Virus record (IMG/VR): IMGVR_UViG_3300025381_000024 | Source: a virus | Direction: 5' to 3' (one strand) | DNA: 46,576 bases | Shown: positions 1 through 46,576 of the stretch, one piece after another | Position numbering within the stretch: position 1 is the first letter of the stretch | Layout of the letters: the number at the start of each line of letters is the position of its first letter | The notes under the pieces: generated by a model | Seen by the model: the letters and a program-made list of their open reading frames with translations, nothing else | What the model was told of the DNA's origin: nothing | Databases searched by the model: none | Program-made: the position numbers and the translations under genes

Positions 1-128
1 AATGGTCAAGGCAATCCAGTTGCTATGGAAAATAGCAAACACCTTACTGGAGAAGCAGTTGATATTGCAAATCCAGAAAAATATTCTGATGAATATTTAG
101 CGCAATATGGTCTTTATAGAAGATTGGG
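1..128. repeat. Terminal overlap copy 1, identical to 46449-46576 (circular closure of a 46,448-bp unit genome)
   Basis: Bases 1-128 match 46449-46576 base by base. The repeat lies inside one continuous ORF (tape measure), so it is a circularisation or assembly overlap, or an arbitrary cut of a permuted genome, not a biological end. Confidence 0.95.
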
Positions 129-5690: not shown

Positions 5691-7283
5691 ATGACAATCT
5701 TACTTTTTGCCAATAATGCTAAATCATTTTTAGCATCTGCTATTTCCAGCACAACCACTACCGCTACTTTGGCTTCTGGTACAGGTTCACTATTCCCAAG
5801 CCCAACCACAGGTCAAGGTTTTAAAATGACCTTTGTGGATGCTGCTACAGGTCTTTTGAATGAAATTGTTTTAGTAACTGCTAGATCAGGCGATACTATT
5901 ACAATAGTTCGTGGTCAAGAAGGTACAACCCCTCAATCTTGGTTAGCAAATGATTTGGCAGGAATGTATTTTACGGCTGGAACTATTAATAATAATATCC
6001 AGTTAGATCAATATCAAATTGGTACTTATGATACTGCTATTGCTACTGGCTCTGCCAATGCTTTATCAGCAACCATTCCTTCCAATTTAAACTATATTCC
6101 AACAAATTTTACTTTTATTTTGCAAGCTGCTTATGCAAATACTGGTGCAGCCACTTTAAATTTAACCATTGGATCAACTGCTACAGGTATTTATTCAATT
6201 GTTAAATCTAATAATCAACCTTTAATTGCAGGTGATATTGCTAATGCTGGTTATCCAATGTTATTGTCTTGGAGTCCAGTTTATTCTGCTTATGTTTTAT
6301 TAAATCCAGGTACAGGAGAATCTACTGCTTTAAGCCCTGCACAACTTCAAGAGCAATTTTATACCTATGCACAAGCTACAGGTGGAGCAGATACCATTGC
6401 AGTAACTATTCCATCTTCTTTAACTTCGCTATCTGATGGTTTAGCACTTGAATTTAGGGCTACAGGTAACAATGCTACAACTACTCCTAATTTAACTTTA
6501 ACTTTGGGTTCTACTGTTACTGCAACTACTACTATTGTTAAAGGTAATAATCAGCCTTTGGCTGTTAGTGATATTGCTGGATCAGGCTATGTTTGCCAAG
6601 TAGTTTATAGCAGTTCTTATGGAAAATGGATTTTATTAAACCCTTATTGGAATGTTAGTTCTTTAGGAACAATGGCTTTTGAAAATTCCAATTCAGTAAA
6701 TATTACTGGTGGAACAATTACTGGTTCTTATGGATTAAATGCTGCAACCGCAACTAATTCTGTAACCACTTCACAAACCAACTTTAGCAATCTTTTTATT
6801 AGCGGTAATCAAGTATTAAGTTCATCAAATTTTAATTCTTATGCTCCAACTTTAAATGGTGCTGGCGCTTATGGTAATTGGGGAATTAATATTACTGGTA
6901 ATGCTAATACTGTCAATACTTTAAATTATTCTCAAATTATTTCTGGTTTAGGTTATACACCTTATAACACTTCAAATCCTGCTGGATATGTTAATGTTGG
7001 TTTAGGTTTTGGTGGAACTCAATGGAATAATGTAACTGGATCAAGAAGTTTTAATACAACATATACCAACTCAAAAAGTTACCCAATTGCGGTTTCAGCA
7101 ACTGCTACTTGCTCTGTAACTTCTACTATTCAAGCCTATGTCAATGGAATGCTAATTGCTTGGTATCAATGGCAGTTTAATGGATGCGGTTCTTATGGCG
7201 GTACATTTATTATTGTTCCACCTGGCGCAACCTATCAACTAAATTCTGGTCAAGGTGTTTATAACTGGGTCGAGTTGTACTAA
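5691..7283 (+). CDS. Tail fibre protein A (530 aa)
   Basis: The N-terminal ~100 aa (MTILLFANNA...VRGQEGT..W...TAG) is shared with the ORFs at 7891 and 8530. The protein is Gly/Thr/Asn/Ser-rich. It has an internal tandem duplication of a ~95-aa module (..TLNLTIGSTATGIYSIVKSNNQPLIAGDIANAGY.. versus ..NLTLTLGSTVTATTTIVKGNNQPLAVSDIAGSGY..). Confidence 0.8.
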   Translation: MTILLFANNAKSFLASAISSTTTTATLASGTGSLFPSPTTGQGFKMTFVDAATGLLNEIVLVTARSGDTITIVRGQEGTTPQSWLANDLAGMYFTAGTINNNIQLDQYQIGTYDTAIATGSANALSATIPSNLNYIPTNFTFILQAAYANTGAATLNLTIGSTATGIYSIVKSNNQPLIAGDIANAGYPMLLSWSPVYSAYVLLNPGTGESTALSPAQLQEQFYTYAQATGGADTIAVTIPSSLTSLSDGLALEFRATGNNATTTPNLTLTLGSTVTATTTIVKGNNQPLAVSDIAGSGYVCQVVYSSSYGKWILLNPYWNVSSLGTMAFENSNSVNITGGTITGSYGLNAATATNSVTTSQTNFSNLFISGNQVLSSSNFNSYAPTLNGAGAYGNWGINITGNANTVNTLNYSQIISGLGYTPYNTSNPAGYVNVGLGFGGTQWNNVTGSRSFNTTYTNSKSYPIAVSATATCSVTSTIQAYVNGMLIAWYQWQFNGCGSYGGTFIIVPPGATYQLNSGQGVYNWVELY

Positions 7284-7890: not shown

Positions 7891-8529
7891 ATGACCATTC
7901 TGCTCTTTGCTAATAATGCACAGTCTACTTTAGCATCACCTATTTCTGCATCTGCAACCACTTGCACATTAGCAACTGGTACTGGGGCTAAATTCCCCAA
8001 TCCTACTACTGGTCAAGCATTTAAAATGACCTTTACTGATGCTGCTACTGGTTTTTTGGATGAAATTGTTCTTTGTACAGCTAGGTCTGCCGATGTCTGC
8101 ACTATTGTTAGAGCACAAGAAGGGACTACTGCTCAATCGTGGTTGGCAGGAGATTTGGCATCAAATTACTTTACTGCTGGAGCAGCTAGTTCTTTTCAGC
8201 AAACTGGTAATGCTTTGCCACCAACTGTAACTACAGTTACCAATGCTTTTTATACTCAAACCACTAGCGATACGACTTTAATTATTAATACTTCATTTGA
8301 TGTTGTATTAACTCTTTTAAATGCTGCATCTTATTATGGTAATACTCTTTGGATTAAAAACCCTAATGGAGTAACCATTACAAGTGCATCTTCAAATGTA
8401 GTGCCTTCTGGTACAACAACAGCAGGTACAGCCATTTTAGAAGCAGTTGTTGGCACTTCTTGTTTATTGCAATCCGATGGTACAAATTGGAATGTAATTT
8501 CTACATCTTTTCAACCAAGTGGATTCTAA
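7891..8529 (+). CDS. Tail fibre protein B (short, 212 aa)
   Basis: The N-terminal ~100 aa is highly similar to fibre A (MTILLFANNAQSTLASPISAS...VRAQEGTTAQSWLAGDLASNYFTAGA), followed by a different C-terminal domain. Confidence 0.75.
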   Translation: MTILLFANNAQSTLASPISASATTCTLATGTGAKFPNPTTGQAFKMTFTDAATGFLDEIVLCTARSADVCTIVRAQEGTTAQSWLAGDLASNYFTAGAASSFQQTGNALPPTVTTVTNAFYTQTTSDTTLIINTSFDVVLTLLNAASYYGNTLWIKNPNGVTITSASSNVVPSGTTTAGTAILEAVVGTSCLLQSDGTNWNVISTSFQPSGF

Positions 8530-11500
8530 ATGGGCATCCTATTATTTGCTAATCAGGCACAGACAACTCTTGCTCTACCTGTAGCAAGTACAGATACAGT
8601 CATTTATGTTGCTGCTGGTACTGGATCATATTTTCCTGCCCCATCTGCAAATCAAGCAGTTACTATTACCCTTGTAAATGCAACTAATAACTTAGTTGTA
8701 GAAATTGTTTCTTGTACCAACATTACTGGTGATGCTCTAACTGTAGTGAGAGGTCAAGAAGGTACTGTCCCTAGAGCATGGAATCGAGGTGATTTTGTTA
8801 CCAATTTGATGACTGCTGGTACTGCAAATTCATTTTCTCAAATTTATGGCTTAAATAATGCCTTGTATTCACCGCATTTTGCCAATACTTTAACCGATTC
8901 AGGTCAAGTTATTGCTGTCCCTGTCAATCCTACTGATTTGGTTAACAAGCAATATGCTGATTCTATTTCTACAGGCGCAGCTAAATATGAGTGTCAATGT
9001 GCCACTACAGGTGACATTACCCTTTCTGGGCTACAAACTATTGATGGATATACCACTTTAGCTGGTGATCGAGTTGTAGTAAGAGCACAAGCCAACCCTG
9101 CTTACAATGGTATTTGGGTTGCTTCTACAACTGCTTGGGCTAGAGCAGCCGACATGGAAGCCTGGGTACAAATACCAGGTGCAACTACTTTTGTACAAAA
9201 TGGCACTTTATATGCCAAAACTGGTTGGGTAGCCATTGTCCCTGAAATTGGCACAATTGATGTCACTCCTATTACTTGGACACAAATTTCTGGTCAAGGC
9301 ACTTATAGTGCTGGCACAGGGTTAACCCTTACTGGCACTCAATTTAGCATTACCAATACTGGTGTTACCGCAGGGTCTTATGGTACTGCTTCTTATGTGC
9401 CAGCTTTATTTTTAAATGCTCAAGGTCAAATTACTAGCGCAACCAATACACCAATTAGTATTGCACCAAGTCAAATTAATGCGACTATCCCAAATTCAGG
9501 TTTAACCAATTCATCTATTACTATTGGGTCAACAAGTGTTTCATTAGGGTCTACCCTAACTACTTTGGTTGGCACTTCAATTAGTGGTTCTACCAATACT
9601 TTAACTGCAATTCCTAATAGTGCATTAGTCAATAATTCAATCACTATCAATGGCAATGCAGTTGCATTGGGTGGCAGCACTACTGTCACCGCAGTTACAC
9701 CTTATGCTTTGACTATCGGCACAGGTCTATCTGGTGGATCATTTAATGGCTCTAGCGCAGTTACTATTGCTCTGGCTAATACCGCAGTTACCGCAGGTTC
9801 TTATGGTTCTGCTGGCTCTGTAGCAACTTTTACTGTCAATGTCCAGGGTCAACTTACCGCAGCCAATACAACCTCTATTGCTATTAGCAATACTCAGGTA
9901 TCTGGTTTAGGCACTATGTCTACCCAAAATGCCAATAATGTGGCTATAACTGGTGGAACAATTCAAGGTGTAGGACTAACTATAGATAGTTTAGATAATA
10001 CCCCTATAGGCTCTACAACTCCTTCTACAGCTAAATTTACAACTTTATCTGCCAATAGTACTGTCACTTTAGGAAACTATACTGGCTATGTTTATGCCAA
10101 TGGTTCTAGTGCAATTACCGCATCTACAACCATTCCTACTACTGCTCTTAGTGGTACAGTTACTAATGCTCAACTAGCAAATTCTTCTATCACTATTAAT
10201 GGTGATTTAGTAAATCTTGGTGGTTCTGTAACAGTAACTGCCGATCTTCCAAATAGCCTTACTTTTAATAATAGTGGGTCTGGGGCATCTTCTCCTGTAG
10301 TTTTTAATGGTGCAACTGCTTATACCATTTCTTACAATACTTTAGGTGCTTCTCCTTTGGCTGGATCAACCAGCTTAACTACTACTGGAACTATCACTAC
10401 AGGTACTTGGTCTGGTCTTTTCGGTGCGGTTTCAGGCGCAAATTTAACCAATTTAACTGCTGGTAATCTTACTGGCACTATTCCTTCGACAGTTTTAGGA
10501 AATTCGACTGTCTATATTGGAACAACCGCAGTAGCTTTAAATCGTGCTTCTGCAACTTTGGCTTTAACTGGAATTACCATACCGACTCTAACTATTGGAA
10601 CTGGTCTTTCTGGAATTTCCTATAATGGTTCTACTGCTACCACCATTGCTTTAGCAAATACCGCAGTCACCGCAGGAAGTTATGGTTCAGCTTCAAATAC
10701 TTTGGAAGCAACTGTTAATGGTCAAGGGCAATTAACTGCGCTTAGTTCAGTAGCAATTAGCATTGCTCCAAGCCAAATTAATGCCACTATTCCTAATTCT
10801 GGATTAACAAACTCTAGTATCACCATTAATGGTAATGCTGTCAGTCTTGGCGGTTCTACTACAGTCACCGCAGACACCCCTAATGCCCTTACGATTGGCA
10901 CAGGTCTTTCTGGAACAAGTTTTAATGGATCATCCCCAGTAACAATTGCCATTTCTAATTCTGGTGTTACTTCTGGAACTTATGGTAATGCTTCAACCAT
11001 TCCAGTTATTACTGTCAACAGCCAAGGTCAAATTACTTCAGTAAGCACTCAGCCTACCAATGCTCCTGCTTATCAAGGAACATGGAATGCTTCAACTAAT
11101 AACCCAACTTTGACTTCTTCGGTTGGAACTCAGGGTTATTACTATGTAGTTTCTACTGCTGGTAATACTACTTTAAATGGTGTTTCCGATTGGAATATTG
11201 GCGATTGGGCAATATTTAGTGGTGGTGCATGGGAAAAAATACCTGGATCAAATACAGAATCGTTCACCAATTTAACCACTACCAATTTGGCGGTTACTGG
11301 TCTTACTGGCTATATGTATGCCAATAACACTATTGGTAATGTAACTGCTTCAACCACAATTCCAACTACTGCATTAAGCGGAACAATTACTAATGCTCAA
11401 TTAGCGAATTCAACCATATCAGGGATTTCCCTAGGTAGCAACTTGGCTACATTGACTATTGGAACAAGCCTTTCTGGTACTTCATACAATGGTGGAAGTG

Positions 11501-13377
11501 CAGTAACTATTGCCCTGGCATCTAGCGGTGTTACTGCTGGTTCTTATGGATCGGCTAGTACTGTACCGACTTATACAGTTAATGCTCAAGGTCAACTTAC
11601 AGCAGCTTCCAATACGACCATTTCTATTGCTCCTAGTCAGATTAATGCAACCATTCCGAATAGTGGATTGACCAATAGTTCAATCACTATTAATGGAAAT
11701 GCGGTCAGTTTAGGTGGATCAACTACTGTAACTGCTGATACCCCAAATGCTTTAACCATTGGAACTGGATTATCTGGAACATCTTTTAATGGTAGTTCTC
11801 CAGTAACCATTTCTATTTCAAATACTGCGGTAACTGCTGGAAGTTATGGTTCTGCAACTCAAGTTGGAACATTTACTGTTAATGCACAAGGTCAATTGAC
11901 CGCAGCTTCTAATGTCACTATCACCCCAGCAGTTACTTCGATTACTGGATTGGGTATTGGAATGGCTACTTTCTTAGCCACTCCAACAAGTGCAAACTTG
12001 GTTGCTACTGTAACCGATGAAACTGGTACTGGTTCTTTAGTATTTGCCAATACTCCAACTTTAGTTACCCCAATTTTGGGAACTCCTACTTCTGGCACTT
12101 TGACCAATTGCTCTGGACTTCCTTTAAGTACTGGGGTTACTGGTACTTTATCAGTAGGAAATGGCGGTACAGGAGTAACTTCTTCAAGCGGTGCTAATTC
12201 TGTAGTTTTAAGAGATAGCAATCAAAATGTATTTGCTAATAATTTCATACCAAATACAACATTTACAGCATCATCATCAACACCTGTTAATTTAACTGTT
12301 TCATCTGCTCAATATCAAGTAGTAACAGGCACAACTACTTCTCAAGTATTTAATATGCCTGATGCGACTACTTTGATTGTAGGCGATACTTATTATTTTA
12401 ATAATAATATTACTTATTCTTCTGTGCAAATTAATGCACATGATGGAACTACATCATTATTAGCATTACAAGCTGGTGGTGCTGCTCATTTAATTCTTTT
12501 AAGCAATAGCACTTCTAATGGGACTTGGGATATTCATTCTTATGTGCCAGCTTCAGTTTCATGGGGAAATGCAACTTTAAATTTTAATTCTGCAAGTAGT
12601 ATTTCAGGCTCTGTATCTTGGCAAGGTAATACTATAGGCATTGGTTATGGTGGTACTGGTATTACTTCTACACCTACCAATGGTCAATTATTGATTGGTA
12701 ATGGTACTGGTTACACCCTGGCAACCATTACTGCTGGTGCTGGTATCTCAGTCACTAATAGTTCTGGTGGCATCACCATTGCAGTTAATGGTACTGGTGA
12801 AGTAACTAGCTTCCAAACTAGCTTATCAGGGCTAACACCTAGCACCGCTACAGGCGGTGCAGTTACCCTGGCAGGTACTCTAGGGGCTGCATCTGGCGGT
12901 ACTGGAGCAACTACCCTTACTGGATATGTATATGGTAATGGCACTTCAGCCATGACCGCATCAACCACTATTCCTACAAGTGCTTTATCTGGAAACTTTG
13001 TAAGCACATTTAGTGCTGGCACTACTGGTCTAACACCCTCTACTGCGACTGCTGGTGCTATCACTTTAAGTGGTACTTTAGTAGTTGGAAATGGTGGTAC
13101 TGGAGTTGCAACTTTGACAGGCTTGGCTTATGGCAATGGCACTTCTGCTTTTACAGCAGCAACCGCAGCCCAAGTAGTTTCTGTAATAGGTTCTACAGCA
13201 GTAACCAATGCTACCAATGCTGCAAACTTAAACCTGGCTGCTGGTTCAGGATCAACAAACTATATTACTTTTGCTTCTTCTGCAACAGGAAATACAGCAC
13301 AATACACAAATACTGGACTTACTTACAATTACACCAATAATGCTATTACTGGGGGTATCTCAGGTGGCTCTTTTTAA
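8530..13377 (+). CDS. Giant tail fibre protein C (1615 aa) with long internal repeats
   Basis: It has the same N-terminal anchor module (MGILLFANQAQTTL...VRGQEGTVPRAWNRGDF..TAGT). It carries multiple repeated modules (SIAPSQINATIPNSGLTNSSITINGNAVSLGGSTTVTADTPNALTIGTGLSGTSFNGSSPVTI x2 plus a diverged copy, and TASTTIPTTALSGT.TNAQLANS x3). Its ATG overlaps the previous stop. Confidence 0.85.
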   Translation: MGILLFANQAQTTLALPVASTDTVIYVAAGTGSYFPAPSANQAVTITLVNATNNLVVEIVSCTNITGDALTVVRGQEGTVPRAWNRGDFVTNLMTAGTANSFSQIYGLNNALYSPHFANTLTDSGQVIAVPVNPTDLVNKQYADSISTGAAKYECQCATTGDITLSGLQTIDGYTTLAGDRVVVRAQANPAYNGIWVASTTAWARAADMEAWVQIPGATTFVQNGTLYAKTGWVAIVPEIGTIDVTPITWTQISGQGTYSAGTGLTLTGTQFSITNTGVTAGSYGTASYVPALFLNAQGQITSATNTPISIAPSQINATIPNSGLTNSSITIGSTSVSLGSTLTTLVGTSISGSTNTLTAIPNSALVNNSITINGNAVALGGSTTVTAVTPYALTIGTGLSGGSFNGSSAVTIALANTAVTAGSYGSAGSVATFTVNVQGQLTAANTTSIAISNTQVSGLGTMSTQNANNVAITGGTIQGVGLTIDSLDNTPIGSTTPSTAKFTTLSANSTVTLGNYTGYVYANGSSAITASTTIPTTALSGTVTNAQLANSSITINGDLVNLGGSVTVTADLPNSLTFNNSGSGASSPVVFNGATAYTISYNTLGASPLAGSTSLTTTGTITTGTWSGLFGAVSGANLTNLTAGNLTGTIPSTVLGNSTVYIGTTAVALNRASATLALTGITIPTLTIGTGLSGISYNGSTATTIALANTAVTAGSYGSASNTLEATVNGQGQLTALSSVAISIAPSQINATIPNSGLTNSSITINGNAVSLGGSTTVTADTPNALTIGTGLSGTSFNGSSPVTIAISNSGVTSGTYGNASTIPVITVNSQGQITSVSTQPTNAPAYQGTWNASTNNPTLTSSVGTQGYYYVVSTAGNTTLNGVSDWNIGDWAIFSGGAWEKIPGSNTESFTNLTTTNLAVTGLTGYMYANNTIGNVTASTTIPTTALSGTITNAQLANSTISGISLGSNLATLTIGTSLSGTSYNGGSAVTIALASSGVTAGSYGSASTVPTYTVNAQGQLTAASNTTISIAPSQINATIPNSGLTNSSITINGNAVSLGGSTTVTADTPNALTIGTGLSGTSFNGSSPVTISISNTAVTAGSYGSATQVGTFTVNAQGQLTAASNVTITPAVTSITGLGIGMATFLATPTSANLVATVTDETGTGSLVFANTPTLVTPILGTPTSGTLTNCSGLPLSTGVTGTLSVGNGGTGVTSSSGANSVVLRDSNQNVFANNFIPNTTFTASSSTPVNLTVSSAQYQVVTGTTTSQVFNMPDATTLIVGDTYYFNNNITYSSVQINAHDGTTSLLALQAGGAAHLILLSNSTSNGTWDIHSYVPASVSWGNATLNFNSASSISGSVSWQGNTIGIGYGGTGITSTPTNGQLLIGNGTGYTLATITAGAGISVTNSSGGITIAVNGTGEVTSFQTSLSGLTPSTATGGAVTLAGTLGAASGGTGATTLTGYVYGNGTSAMTASTTIPTSALSGNFVSTFSAGTTGLTPSTATAGAITLSGTLVVGNGGTGVATLTGLAYGNGTSAFTAATAAQVVSVIGSTAVTNATNAANLNLAAGSGSTNYITFASSATGNTAQYTNTGLTYNYTNNAITGGISGGSF

Positions 13378-13401: not shown

Positions 13402-14724
13402 ATGGCTCAAAGCGGATTTTCCCCCATCCTGATTTATGGCAGTACTACTACTGGTAATACTCCATCTGCAAGCAATTTAACTACAACTTCTCTTGGAGTT
13501 GAACTTGCTATTAATGCTACTGATGGCAAATTATTCTATAAAGATAATGCTGGAAATGTTCAAACTTTAGCCACAAAAGCTACAGGTACTATTGGCGGTT
13601 CAAACACCCAAGTTCAATACAATAGCTCTGGCTTATTGGCTGGTTCTGCCAACATGGTATTTGATGGCTCTACATTGACTACCCTTAATTCTGCATACAC
13701 AGGCACACTTACTGGCGGTACAGGAGTAGTTAATCTAGGTTCTGGACAGTTTTATAAAGATGCTAGTGGTAATGTAGGTATTGGTACTAGTAGTCCTTCC
13801 GCACTTGGATTGCAAGTAACAAAAGGTTCTGGAGTTTCTGCTGGTATTTTATTTAGTAATGCAGCAAATAACTGGCAAATTAACACAGGTACAACTACCA
13901 ACTATTTAGCTTTTGTCGATAATCAATTTGCAGAGCGTATGCGTATTGACTCTAGTGGTAATGTAGGTATTGGTATTACTGCACCTACTGCTAGATTGCA
14001 TTTATCTACAGCATCAGGCTCAACTGCTTTAACAATGTCCACAAACAGCAATCAAAACAATAACTTCACTATTGTCAATGATGCAACCTATGGAATTTTT
14101 GCTTCAAACTATGGAAGCACAGGCGTAAAAGTTAAGTATGCTTTGCAAATGCCTGACAATTCAATGATTATTGATTCTAGCGGTTATGTGTATTTTGTTG
14201 GTTCAGGAACATCACCTTCATATTCACCTGCATCAGGTGTGCAAATATTAAATCTTGTTGGAAATACAGTAGGTGTTATTTCTATTGGTCATGCAAATGG
14301 AACTGCTAGTGGAAATAATTATGTAACTTTTGGATACAATTCAAGTGGTATTGGTTCTATTTCCCAAAACGGCACTACTGGCGTTCTTTATAATTTAACT
14401 TCTGATTACCGCCTTAAAGACAATGCCACACCATTAACAGGTGCTTCAGAATTTATTATGGCTTTGAAACCAAAATCTTGGGATTGGTGGGATGGCTCAG
14501 GTAAGGGTGTTGGCTTTATTGCTCATGAATTTATGGAAGTTGCCAAGTATTCAGGAAATGGTACAAAAGACGAGCTTGATGATGAAGGCAAGCCAAAATA
14601 TCAATCTATTCAGCCATCTTCCTCAGAAGTAATGGCAAATCTTGTAGCTTTAGTCCAAGAACAACAAGCCCTTATTACAACAATGCAAGCCAAACTAAAA
14701 GACGCTGGCATACTAGGATTCTAA
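13402..14724 (+). CDS. Tail fibre/spike protein D with a C-terminal intramolecular chaperone (peptidase S74-type) domain
   Basis: The C-terminus SDYRLKDNATPL...ALKPKSWDW...GFIAHEFMEV...YQSIQPS...LVALVQEQQALI fits the auto-cleaving endosialidase-chaperone domain pattern (SD.R.K ... GfIAqE ... coiled tail). The N-terminus is fibre-like. An AAGGA Shine-Dalgarno sequence lies upstream. Confidence 0.8.
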   Translation: MAQSGFSPILIYGSTTTGNTPSASNLTTTSLGVELAINATDGKLFYKDNAGNVQTLATKATGTIGGSNTQVQYNSSGLLAGSANMVFDGSTLTTLNSAYTGTLTGGTGVVNLGSGQFYKDASGNVGIGTSSPSALGLQVTKGSGVSAGILFSNAANNWQINTGTTTNYLAFVDNQFAERMRIDSSGNVGIGITAPTARLHLSTASGSTALTMSTNSNQNNNFTIVNDATYGIFASNYGSTGVKVKYALQMPDNSMIIDSSGYVYFVGSGTSPSYSPASGVQILNLVGNTVGVISIGHANGTASGNNYVTFGYNSSGIGSISQNGTTGVLYNLTSDYRLKDNATPLTGASEFIMALKPKSWDWWDGSGKGVGFIAHEFMEVAKYSGNGTKDELDDEGKPKYQSIQPSSSEVMANLVALVQEQQALITTMQAKLKDAGILGF

Positions 14725-20635: not shown

Positions 20636-21262
20636 TTATCCTAACTCAATGATTAATTGTTCAACTTCTTCCAAAAACTGCTTTACCTCTTGCTCCATCA
20701 ACTTAATTAATTGCTCATCCCTATAGGTTTTAACAATCAATAAGCGACTCTTTTCAGGCATTCTTGGATCGTAAGATACAAAATCGCACCATTCCCAATC
20801 CATTACCCAGATTTGCCCTTGTACTTGTTTGACATACTCAGTAGGCACAATCTTGTTTCGCCAATATTTAACATGAGTATGACTATCAGGGCATTTGATT
20901 TCCACACCGCCATTGGGAGTTGCGATCCGATCTGGAGAGCAGCCAACCCAAGGAATACTAGAGTGTTTCCAAAAACCTGTCTTGTCTAATAATGTTTCAC
21001 ATGAAACCTCATAAGCCATAGCAGCTTTTTCTTCTGTCTCCACACCCCATTCCATGCTTGGGTTTGAATAAGACTCACCAATTTCACCAGTAAGTCTTTC
21101 AATTGCCAGGCGAGTTTTGTATTTTTCCCTAGTAACAGACTCAGCACCACCTTTACCTTTAGCCATAACAGCATCTAGGTTAGAAGCTGATACATACCCC
21201 AGGCGAACCTTTTTCCATTCATCTGTACCCTGTTCTACATGGATAGAATCTTGAATAATCAT
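20636..21262 (-). CDS. YqaJ-type (lambda Exo-like) recombination exonuclease
   Basis: GTDEWKKVRLGYVSASNLDAVM is the typical YqaJ N-terminus. SPDRI...GGVEIKCP is a PD-(D/E)XK core. The gene is paired with an Erf-type annealase gene. Confidence 0.8.
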   Translation of the reverse strand: MIIQDSIHVEQGTDEWKKVRLGYVSASNLDAVMAKGKGGAESVTREKYKTRLAIERLTGEIGESYSNPSMEWGVETEEKAAMAYEVSCETLLDKTGFWKHSSIPWVGCSPDRIATPNGGVEIKCPDSHTHVKYWRNKIVPTEYVKQVQGQIWVMDWEWCDFVSYDPRMPEKSRLLIVKTYRDEQLIKLMEQEVKQFLEEVEQLIIELG

Positions 21263-21801
21263 GATTGTGCTCCAAGCAATTCAGCTTTGCGAATATCTTT
21301 GGCTTTGACCAACTCTGGCAATTCGCCTAAAGTTTTGACCGCAGCAATGTAGACCTTTTTTAAAGCATCTTCGCTTAAAGCAGACATAATTTTGTTGATA
21401 TAAGGGTCAATACTGGGTGGCTCTGCGCCTGTAGTGGAATCAATGGCATCATGCTCAACAATCTCCAGGGCTGCCATCCAAAGGTATCTGCGTTGATAAG
21501 TCTCAACTGCACCAATGTTTTGCACCTCATGACAGCCTTTTAAGTTGGCTGATCCCATTGGACTTTCAATTTCTATTTTGTCACCTGAATCAATGTCAAC
21601 AATAGCCATTTTTGCTTGTTCAACATTAAAACTAACAATGCCACAAAGACCATTGTTTTCAAATACTCCTAAAGCTGGAATCAAAAAGTCGGCAAGTTCA
21701 AAATAGTTGTACTTGGCAAAATCATTGCGACCCGATTTTTTTAACTTTAAAAGATGAAATTCTTTTCTAGCTTGATTTAATTTTTTGTAAATAGTACTCA
21801 T
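21259..21801 (-). CDS. erf: ERF-family single-strand annealing protein
   Basis: By eye it aligns with P22 Erf (FAKYNYFELADFLIPALGVF versus FGKYKYRSCEDILEGVKPLL, and AVETYQRRYLWMAALEI versus ATSSYARKYCLNGLFGI). Confidence 0.75.
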   Translation of the reverse strand: MSTIYKKLNQARKEFHLLKLKKSGRNDFAKYNYFELADFLIPALGVFENNGLCGIVSFNVEQAKMAIVDIDSGDKIEIESPMGSANLKGCHEVQNIGAVETYQRRYLWMAALEIVEHDAIDSTTGAEPPSIDPYINKIMSALSEDALKKVYIAAVKTLGELPELVKAKDIRKAELLGAQS

Positions 21802-45055: not shown

Positions 45056-46576
45056 AAGTGTAATTGACATTGATATTAATGATGAGAAATTCAAAGAGTT
45101 CCAAAGACTCTTTGAAAAGTATCAGCAATCCCTTGTCAAAATGCCAAATCAATGGGGAAAAATAAATAAAGAAGTTGGTTCTTTACAGGGCAATTTCAAT
45201 AAAATCCAACACGCTTTGGATACTATTGCTTCCAGATTAGATAAAAATTACAAGACTTTACAAAATACAGATCAAGTAGTTAATAAGACTGAAAAGCATT
45301 GGCAGAATATTGGAAAGTCTGCTGCATCTATTACCAAAAATGTTACCGCTACTACTTGGAATCTTTTGAAATGGGGTAGTGTTACTACTGCTTTTGGTTT
45401 ATTAGGTGCTGCTGGTGGTCTATTTGGTATTGGCTCATTAGCTGGCTCTGCAAATGATACTAGAAGGCAATCTCAAGGATTGGGAGTATCGGCAGGAGAA
45501 TTAAAAGCTGCTCAAATTAATTTTCAAAGAGTTGCCGATGTTAATTCGGTTTTGGGAAATGTTGCAGCAGCGCAAACTGATGTTCAAAAACAATGGGCTT
45601 TCCAGGCTGCTAATGTTAATCCCAATCAAAATGTAGCCCAATTATTACCACAATTGCTTAGAAGGGCTGCTGAAGTATACAAAGCTGGCGAACCTGCTAC
45701 TGCTCAACAAAGATTGGAAGTAAGTGGATTATCTGCTTTAGGCATTGATGTTGAAACTGCTCGAAGAATGGCATCTTTGCGAAAAGGTGAAATGGATGAT
45801 ATTGAGAGAAAATACAATGCCGATACCAAATCTTTAGCCCTTACTGATGCTTTATTAAGAAGATGGCAAGACTTAGATGTTCAATTAGGTAGATCAAAGC
45901 AAAAAATTGAAAATGTATTTCTGACAGGATTGGAAGGTTTAGTCACTCCATTAGAAAAGCTGTCTGATTCATTTTCTAATGCGGTTAAAGTTTTCCTTGA
46001 AAGCCCAGCAATTAAAAATTGGATTACTGATGTTGCAAGTCATCTTGAGGGTTGGGCTAAAGATATGACCAAGCCAGAATTTCAAGATGCTGTTAAAAAA
46101 TTCGCTTCTCAAGTTGTTACTATTGGAGAAGCTGCTGTCAAATTAGCTGAAGCTGTTCTTTGGTTAGCCGATAAGATTAAAGAGCCATTCAATCCTGATC
46201 CTAGTCATAATATTGTTATGACACCAGAAGAAGCCAAGAAAAAAGGTGCAATACCTTTTGAGCCTTCTAGAGAAGGTATGAAAGAAGGATTCAAGGCTTG
46301 GTGGAATAATTTAAGTGGTGTAAACCCTGAATTAGCCAATGCAGTACAAGCTGCTGGTTTGCCTGTCATTAGCGGAAAAAGAGATGAAAATTGGGCTAAA
46401 AAGCATGGAATTTTAAATCCTGCTGATGGCAAATATTACACAAAACCAAATGGTCAAGGCAATCCAGTTGCTATGGAAAATAGCAAACACCTTACTGGAG
46501 AAGCAGTTGATATTGCAAATCCAGAAAAATATTCTGATGAATATTTAGCGCAATATGGTCTTTATAGAAGATTGGG
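45045..46576 (+). CDS. Tail tape measure protein, N-terminal and central part (no stop in the window; continues at base 1)
   Basis: ATG 45045. I translated it by eye with no stop to the window end. It has helical, Ala/Gln/Lys-rich sequence and a hydrophobic Gly-rich segment (FGLLGAAGGLFGIGSLAGS). It is absent from the ORF track because it runs off the end. Confidence 0.85.
   Translation, partial: MATKSVIDIDINDEKFKEFQRLFEKYQQSLVKMPNQWGKINKEVGSLQGNFNKIQHALDTIASRLDKNYKTLQNTDQVVNKTEKHWQNIGKSAASITKNVTATTWNLLKWGSVTTAFGLLGAAGGLFGIGSLAGSANDTRRQSQGLGVSAGELKAAQINFQRVADVNSVLGNVAAAQTDVQKQWAFQAANVNPNQNVAQLLPQLLRRAAEVYKAGEPATAQQRLEVSGLSALGIDVETARRMASLRKGEMDDIERKYNADTKSLALTDALLRRWQDLDVQLGRSKQKIENVFLTGLEGLVTPLEKLSDSFSNAVKVFLESPAIKNWITDVASHLEGWAKDMTKPEFQDAVKKFASQVVTIGEAAVKLAEAVLWLADKIKEPFNPDPSHNIVMTPEEAKKKGAIPFEPSREGMKEGFKAWWNNLSGVNPELANAVQAAGLPVISGKRDENWAKKHGILNPADGKYYTKPNGQGNPVAMENSKHLTGEAVDIANPEKYSDEYLAQYGLYRRL
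46449..46576. repeat. Terminal overlap copy 2 (identical to 1-128)
   Basis: See copy 1. Confidence 0.95.

Follow-up and report, generated by a model that had tools for sequence, protein, structure and literature searches.

The window analysed here, 46,576 nucleotides (nt) of DNA from the IMG/VR virus record IMGVR_UViG_3300025381_000024, carries a long gene in which one module of 64 amino acids (aa) occurs twice. Judged by its location within the tail/baseplate module and its homology to annotated fibres, this gene encodes a phage tail fibre. The product matches PHROG 31660 ('tail fiber protein') in its C-terminal part, aa 1345-1448 (E=6.6e-13), and the neighbouring genes belong to baseplate hub, baseplate wedge and tail-fibre families, the product of the next gene bearing a Peptidase_S74 (endosialidase-chaperone) domain. 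A Pfam scan of the fibre gave no matches. The two copies of the module, termed A and B, are identical in every residue, while their DNA is as different as that of copies taken from unrelated phages. Their positions are listed in Table 1 together with those of the other features. In the following, W stands for the phage of this window, and L-numbers (L001, L004 and so on) for related fibre loci on other contigs.

Within-gene repeats were located by custom exact-repeat and offset alignments. B begins 864 nt downstream of the start of A, an in-frame offset of 288 codons. The copies are thus not arranged head-to-tail, with unrelated domains between them, and Tandem Repeats Finder reported nothing in the region of A and B. 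The first-pass annotation, made by reading the letters alone, had claimed that 10759-10947 and 11623-11811 encode the same 63 residues with 38 synonymous codon differences, including six switches between the AGY and TCN families of serine codons, and with no amino-acid change. Translation of both intervals bears this out and extends the identical run to 64 residues (64/64, no residue changed). In a codon-aware alignment counted codon by codon, 38 of the 63 codons differ and the protein sequences do not; exactly six of the 11 serines have switched codon family, and 50 of the 189 nucleotides differ (73.5% identity), distributed as 9/6/35 over the first, second and third codon positions. The invariant peptide (10756-10947 for copy A) is abundant in N-x-S/T motifs (NAT, NSS, NGS).

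Table 1. Positions of the fibre gene, its repeat modules and the recombination genes in the window.
Feature	Position	Strand	Basis
Long tail-fibre gene, 1615 aa, containing all repeat modules	8530..13377	+	Open reading frame listing, PHROG 31660, gene neighbours
R1, partly diverged third copy	9454..9768	+	Alignment with A and B
R2, larger repeat embedding copy A, aa 686-840	10585..11049	+	Offset alignment
Copy A, 64-residue module, aa 743-806	10756..10947	+	Translation, alignment; A-type DNA 95-98% identical in related contigs
Hypervariable segment of copy A, module residues 22-43, ITINGNAVSLGGSTTVTADTPN	10819..10884	+	Family variability
R3, larger repeat embedding copy B, aa 974-1128	11449..11913	+	Offset alignment
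Copy B, same module, aa 1031-1094	11620..11811	+	Translation, alignment; B-type DNA identical or 95-96% identical in related contigs
Hypervariable segment of copy B	11683..11748	+	Comparison with L-locus modules
Recombination exonuclease	20636..21262	-	PHROG 149, E=2.9e-44; PHROG 434 RecE-like
Erf-like single-strand annealing protein	21259..21801	-	PHROG 155, E=2.2e-21

The partly diverged third copy that had been noticed near ~9460-9790 is also real. This copy, R1, is made up of 24 residues identical to those of A and B (9454-9525, with 74-79% nucleotide identity to A/B), an insertion of 41 aa, and a stretch of 45 codons (9634-9768) with six substitutions relative to A and B, five of which fall in its last 40 residues. 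Both A and B are embedded in larger repeats, R2 and R3, which are offset by 288 codons and whose flanks retain ~55-65% identity in protein and ~70% in DNA.

The synonymous sites of A and B were compared with what random codon choice would give. Identical codons number 26 of 64, against 29.0±3.7 when synonymous codons are drawn at random according to the usage of this gene. At four-fold degenerate sites the mismatch is 24/34 (0.71), the equilibrium for the base composition being 0.625, and the flanks of A and B, with 22/35 mismatched, are saturated like the core. Genome-wide, AGY codons account for 0.29 of all serine codons, so that ~41% of shared serines would be switched at equilibrium, as compared with the 6/11 observed. 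Codon usage in both copies agrees with that of the rest of the genome. The proportion of synonymous differences (pS) by the NG86 method is 0.68, and the synonymous distance (dS) between A and B has a lower bound only. As NG86 scores the paths between AGY and TCN serines and between CTN and TTR leucines partly as non-synonymous, its ratio of replacement to synonymous distance (dN/dS) is misleading here, and direct codon counts and four-fold sites were used instead; these show saturation. The claim of near-saturated synonymous divergence without replacement is thereby confirmed. Because codon identity, four-fold mismatch and serine switching are all at equilibrium, A and B are indistinguishable from two independent back-translations of one peptide.

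A protein search yielded 2837 fibre homologues at E<=1e-10 among 8000 candidates scored. Contigs of several independent ENA and JGI samples carry the closest of them, at 93-95% identity. Another 160 loci, mostly from bog-lake samples (as judged by record names) including Trout Bog, were obtained by scanning the IMG/VR and JGI metagenomes. A megablast search of the fibre gene against GenBank phages gave one 42-nt match only. Both A-type and B-type DNA recur in 13 clade loci at 95-100% identity. Neither a third DNA version of the peptide nor an A/B hybrid was seen among these 13 loci, and the DNA types that encode the peptide number only two among 166 loci. An identical protein with random-looking codons is what deliberate scrambling would yield, which raises the question of whether the pattern is an assembly error or a designed, codon-scrambled construct. 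We give this explanation virtually no credence: both DNA versions are present on independent ENA/JGI contigs with ordinary small divergence, which rules it out, hundreds of related natural fibres show a similar pattern, and the codon usage of both copies is that of the rest of the genome. An overlapping gene was also considered as the cause of the A/B identity, and was rejected.

Comparison with the homologous fibres of related phages reveals the same pattern, conserved in protein and saturated in codons. Module residues 1-23 and ~44-58 are near-invariant in the family, whereas ~22 positions, chiefly residues 22-43, vary between phages. The first 23 residues are identical in 19 independent lineages of other phages, at a nucleotide identity of 0.769±0.074; for the same 23-aa start within the window the values are 0.710 (A-B), 0.783 (R1-A) and 0.725 (R1-B), all inside the spread of the 19 lineages. 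In DNA, then, A and B resemble any two unrelated lineages. At the invariant serines of 39 independent lineages the AGY and TCN families are both common, with a mean switched fraction of 0.39±0.18, as against 0.55 for A-B, which weakens the idea that the serine switches need a special process. Near-identity over saturated codons is also found between phages, since L059 differs from L048 or L098 by two residues and copy A from L013, L015 or L090 by four. Within other single fibres the pattern is seen as well: in L071 the hypervariable segment agrees in 22/22 residues and 7/22 codons; L005, L093, L135 and L144 are similar. The identical full 64-mer is confined to this clade, and ~40 residues are conserved across independent lineages. 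The first-pass annotation had read the A/B identity as extraordinary purifying selection on the peptide. This is supported on a wider scale: with 19 lineages sharing the 23-residue start, serine families mixed and pairs differing by 2-4 residues at saturation, very strong and long-lasting selection on the peptide is shared by the whole family.

Several serine positions of the module strongly favour one codon family. Across the 39 lineages, AGY codons make up 92% at position 6 and TCN codons 91% at position 52, the genome as a whole being 29% AGY.

It had further been suggested that nucleotide identity itself is selected against, given that the phage's own Erf/exonuclease system would delete identical repeats. 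In such a scenario two identical 192-bp repeats, 864 bp apart, would have arisen by a recent duplication or conversion, and synonymous changes breaking this identity would have been selected until too little homology was left for recombination. The premise concerning the genes holds, as an SSB gene is encoded in the window alongside those of the Erf-like annealing protein and the exonuclease. A and B share no run longer than 9 nt, whereas synonymous shuffling would lead one to expect a longest run of 15.9±4.5 nt (P=0.031 and 0.024 in two runs). Codon identity, nucleotide identity and four-fold mismatch tend in the same direction, towards greater difference than random choice would give. A deficit of replacements relative to synonymous differences would follow naturally. 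Within-gene nucleotide repeats of at least 60 nt are never more than 80% identical in 10 independent fibres, and an A/B hybrid copy is present in 0/13 clade loci. However, the 9-nt run is a single nominally significant statistic among several, picked after the data had been seen, and its signal was not replicated: six other pairs gave P=0.11-0.81, with a Fisher combination of five roughly independent pairs at ~0.08. Overall nucleotide identity (P=0.15) and the number of identical codons (P=0.28) are not below random expectation, and A-B stands at the 27th-29th percentile of an empirical null drawn from unrelated phages. Repeated k-mers are not depleted gene-wide (P=0.16-0.45) and are in excess when summed over 22 related fibres. 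Serine switching at 6/11 is the equilibrium level, which selection for 'just enough' divergence would not yield; the flanks are equally saturated although they have diverged in protein too; and synonymous rates in the core are not raised between W and L004. The survey of the family is itself biased against young duplicates, as metagenome assemblers break at long exact repeats.

Efficient homologous recombination needs roughly 20-30 nt or more of identity. Since the run of ~16 nt expected at random is already below this length, no extra force is needed for the stability of saturated copies. The premise of the suggestion thus stands and its prediction does not; avoidance of recombination is unproven and unnecessary, and we regard it as quite unlikely to be the explanation, although it may have been a historical contributor.

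The A/B observation is real, natural and statistically unusual, and what makes it unusual is the identity at the variable positions. Codon-saturated module pairs differ on average by 11.8±3.7 residues in a first sample and by ~14 residues over 3166 pairs, among which zero residue differences at codon saturation were found only in the A-B pairs of this clade. A and B share the family-rare states N27, T35, V37 and D40 (2-15% frequency). From family-wide residue frequencies, with positions taken as independent, the chance of 64/64 identity would be ~10^-7, a figure that is overstated, the variable positions being correlated into module types ('type' here meaning module copies with the same states at the variable positions).

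We propose, with a confidence only slightly better than even, that A and B are old copies of one module type, kept alike by selection at the protein level while their DNA has gone to synonymous equilibrium. The two copies would belong to the shaft of a long fibre. Their DNA would have diverged until the synonymous sites, both serine codon families included, reached mutational equilibrium, and protein-level selection would have retained every residue. The ~40 of 64 residues that are near-invariant across the phage family would be held by a structural or assembly constraint, probably that of a trimeric fibre. The ~22 variable residues, mainly 22-43, would be lineage-specific determinants that change in bursts between lineages and are frozen within them, with the same states in A and B. 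We infer both that the identity has been kept by descent, not re-created, and the purpose of the constraint. Relatives in the clade carry substitutions in a single copy (D40N in A; S6N and N19Y in B), so the identity is not instantly enforced, as expected if selection purges slowly.

An AlphaFold2 monomer model of aa 686-845, built on a 59-sequence alignment, is of low overall confidence (predicted local distance difference test, pLDDT, 69.6; predicted template modelling score, pTM, 0.29). Confident β-hairpins appear in it only at the GSYGSA...TVNxQGQLT motifs, and a Foldseek search of this low-confidence model against the PDB gave nothing at E<=0.001.

Several observations weigh against the retention of two old copies. 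First, the edge between the 64-residue core and the R2/R3 flanks is sharp, and the flanks of A and B differ at ~40% of residues (pooled replacement distance, dN, 0.405; proportion of replacement differences, pN, 0.313). Second, replacement and synonymous codon changes in the core along short branches stand at 66:268 over 15 clusters, or 25:190 without the largest cluster; W and L004 differ by 2 replacements and 15 synonymous changes, and the estimate from the W clade alone has a wide confidence range. At a rate of one amino-acid change per 4-8 synonymous codon changes, taken without multiple-hit correction, the 38 synonymous differences between A and B predict at least 5-10 replacements, and none is seen (P ~0.007 or lower). 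Third, over codons 22-44 copy B and L051 (L051:6064-6132) are separated by seven replacements and one synonymous change, the other 15 codons being identical. Five of the seven replaced codons, which fall at positions 27-29, 35, 37 and 40-41, differ at two bases, and the segment contrasts significantly with the conserved parts (Fisher P=0.005 and 0.0003). Similar rewriting of the segment on a near-unchanged synonymous background is seen between B and L102, L048 and L103. The outcome of such rewriting is another module type, and it is a sign of intense diversifying selection or of codon-scale replacement. Since these positions can outpace synonymous sites, their stasis needs a lineage-specific argument; identity at the variable positions over a saturating time requires either lineage-specific stasis or active matching of the copies. 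Fourth, within the genomes of L046, L071 and L135 the paralogues agree best in the hypervariable segment and less well in the usually conserved downstream part, a pattern that selection for matching explains no less well than simple retention does.

Active matching would amount to concerted evolution at the protein level. Copies that must fit one receptor or docking partner would, on a shift of specificity, each be driven to the same states independently, by point mutation, and the identity would be re-created rather than kept. Agreement within genomes was assessed for the 22-residue segment in 17 independent multi-copy lineages (at least two copies each), using codon-saturated pairs only. A within-genome pair with at most one segment difference exists in 3 of the 17 lineages against 0.37 expected (P=0.0044), and the mean minimum within-genome distance is 5.4 against 6.7±0.56 (P=0.014). 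By locus, the segment differs within the genome by one residue in L046 and by 2-3 in L005, L093, L135, L144 and L155. The segment is thus shared within genomes above the level between lineages, which matching would predict, as it would the close likeness of the segment in L046, L071 and L135 and its quick rewriting on an unchanged synonymous background when B is set beside L051, L102, L048 and L103. However, the null of this test ignores phylogeny, and the same enrichment would be expected if duplications had taken place long ago in particular lineages and the copies had since stayed unchanged. The mean distance over all 20 within-genome pairs is no lower than the background. The clade substitutions D40N, S6N and N19Y are confined to one copy with no parallel change in the other, and the fibre of L103 holds two different types. 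With L046:6001 as outgroup, B's type appears ancestral in its DNA lineage, so that B need not have converged, and exact convergence at ~10 or more positions is a high bar. Phages sharing the DNA backbone of B carry a single copy only, or discordant copies. On balance we consider independent convergence of the copies possible but unlikely. A broader version is similarly doubtful, in which matching to a common receptor or docking partner keeps or makes the hypervariable positions identical on unrelated DNA, and the phage's own annealing recombinase may add to this by removing nucleotide-similar copies.

Exchange of DNA offers another route. The first-pass annotation had listed repeated conversion from diverged donors among its explanations. 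If diverged modules, whether paralogous or those of other phages, repeatedly donated short patches to A or B by recombination and only peptide-preserving patches were kept, the codons might be randomised without a long time. Copy B shares synonymous codons with L051 at 37/53 and with L046:6001 at 35/55, as compared with 26/64 in the pairing with A, the background being 0.41±0.08, and the similarity is uneven along the module. In L004 and L010, copy B is 95-96% identical overall to that of W, with seven nucleotide differences clustered in its first 69 nt, a cluster that may reflect the import of a short patch or a mutational burst. L005 is a recombinant, in which a W-like N-terminal third is joined to a different distal part. 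These indirect hints are in favour of the conversion idea, but the high-identity donors that it needs were not found for the A and B segments, the best match outside the clade being 78% over 192 nt. Moreover, the patches would be only a few codons long and their donors would need the rare states N27, T35, V37 and D40, and two DNA types only encode this peptide among the 166 loci. We therefore hold patchwork exchange to be very improbable.

Two details of these relatives may be recorded here. The cluster in L004:6091-6160 and L010:3372-3441, relative to window 11620-11688, includes a two-base change of a serine codon from TCT to AGT and the replacements S6N and N19Y at family-invariant positions, with 0-2 changes in the remaining 123 nt. 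The mosaic L005:3001-8235 matches the W gene at 86-93% identity over its N-terminal third, R1 module included, while its distal modules are of another type (VTYNGVAVALGASGTIT).

Gene conversion between A and B was rejected: their codon identity of 0.41 equals the background of 0.37-0.41, and B is closer to the L051 and L046 copies than to A. Mutagenesis by a diversity-generating retroelement (DGR) was rejected as well. The changes are not adenine-specific, a high-identity template repeat is absent from the gene, and no reverse transcriptase was found among the open reading frames scanned, which included the small ones in part.

The closest precedent for the retention of A and B as old copies is polyubiquitin, whose repeats are identical in protein with heavy synonymous divergence and for which purifying selection with birth-and-death evolution has been disputed against concerted evolution (Sharp & Li 1987; Nei et al. 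2000; reviewed in PMC10457151). Identical protein, divergent synonymous sites and the same dispute between selection and homogenisation are common to both systems. In contrast to polyubiquitin, which is a head-to-tail tandem of a whole, universally conserved protein, A and B stand 864 nt apart in a single structural gene of a virus and include positions that are hypervariable between phages. Polyubiquitin repeats of the same species are more alike synonymously than those of different species, whereas A and B show no excess of synonymous similarity. The fibre also resembles systems of concerted evolution by gene conversion, in that copies within a genome are nearer in protein than copies from other genomes. 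Conversion and unequal crossing-over, however, homogenise nucleotides, and the DNA of A and B is as divergent as that of copies from unrelated phages.

In T-even phages the tail fibres are reportedly modular, with conserved motifs serving as recombination sites. The fibre studied here is likewise long, built of repeated motifs and subject to mosaic exchange between phages, as in L005. In T-even fibres the conserved motifs keep conserved DNA that promotes swaps, whereas here the most conserved peptides lack conserved DNA, the longest A-B run being 9 nt. Repetitive genes are also said to have been codon-scrambled by design for stability, and the end state, an identical peptide with minimal nucleotide identity, is alike. 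Designed scrambling is a deliberate optimisation, though, and the scrambling of A and B does not significantly exceed what random synonymous choice would give. The variable regions of phage receptor-binding proteins diversified by DGRs offer another likeness, a short fibre segment with many residues changed on an otherwise unchanged background; unlike in DGRs, neither partner's adenine positions account for all the changes in the A/B family. Literature searches did not find a described precedent in phage fibres.

Tail fibres are usually seen as the fastest-evolving phage proteins, and here a shaft module shows ubiquitin-like conservation over saturated DNA. Within it, a segment that is rewritten faster than synonymous sites between phages and is nevertheless identical within the fibre may contain candidate specificity determinants of an abundant, uncultured freshwater phage family. 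A and B provide a natural test case of whether repeats are kept identical by selection alone, or whether a homogenising or anti-recombination process is needed. For phage engineering, they show that a genome with an annealing recombinase of its own can stably carry repetitive fibres as codon-diverged copies.

As to the genome as a whole, window 1-128 is an exact repeat of 46449-46576 (128 nt). Since its ends overlap in this way, the window is a circularly closed contig and a complete genome of ~46,448 bp. The sole PDB sequence match of the fibre is a 'capsid decoration protein' (9nx3_A, E=3.4e-6) to aa 156-274 (window 8995-9351). Two fibre-like proteins of 530 and 212 aa are encoded at 5691-7283 and 7891-8529, with a common N-terminal domain of ~110 residues (PHROGs 8469, 6427, 25419 and 30299) that could be an anchoring domain.

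Compared with L001, the closest relative, nearly all of the 243 nucleotide differences fall in window 8680-9880 (fibre aa 50-450), while the repeat region is ~99% identical, which points to replacement of the proximal part of the fibre by recombination. The Peptidase_S74 gene behind the fibre gene (window 13402-14724) encodes 440 aa, as against 573-590 aa in L001:7873-9594 and L004:7780-9552, although the fibres of these relatives are almost the same as that of W; it appears that the distal receptor-binding gene has been swapped. The sole clear match in the genome collection is L166 (CAIYCP010000321.1), a 54.7-kb contig in a metagenome-assembled genome of an uncultured betaproteobacterium, with 81% identity over module residues 12-64. 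Its binning gives a weak hint of the host group.

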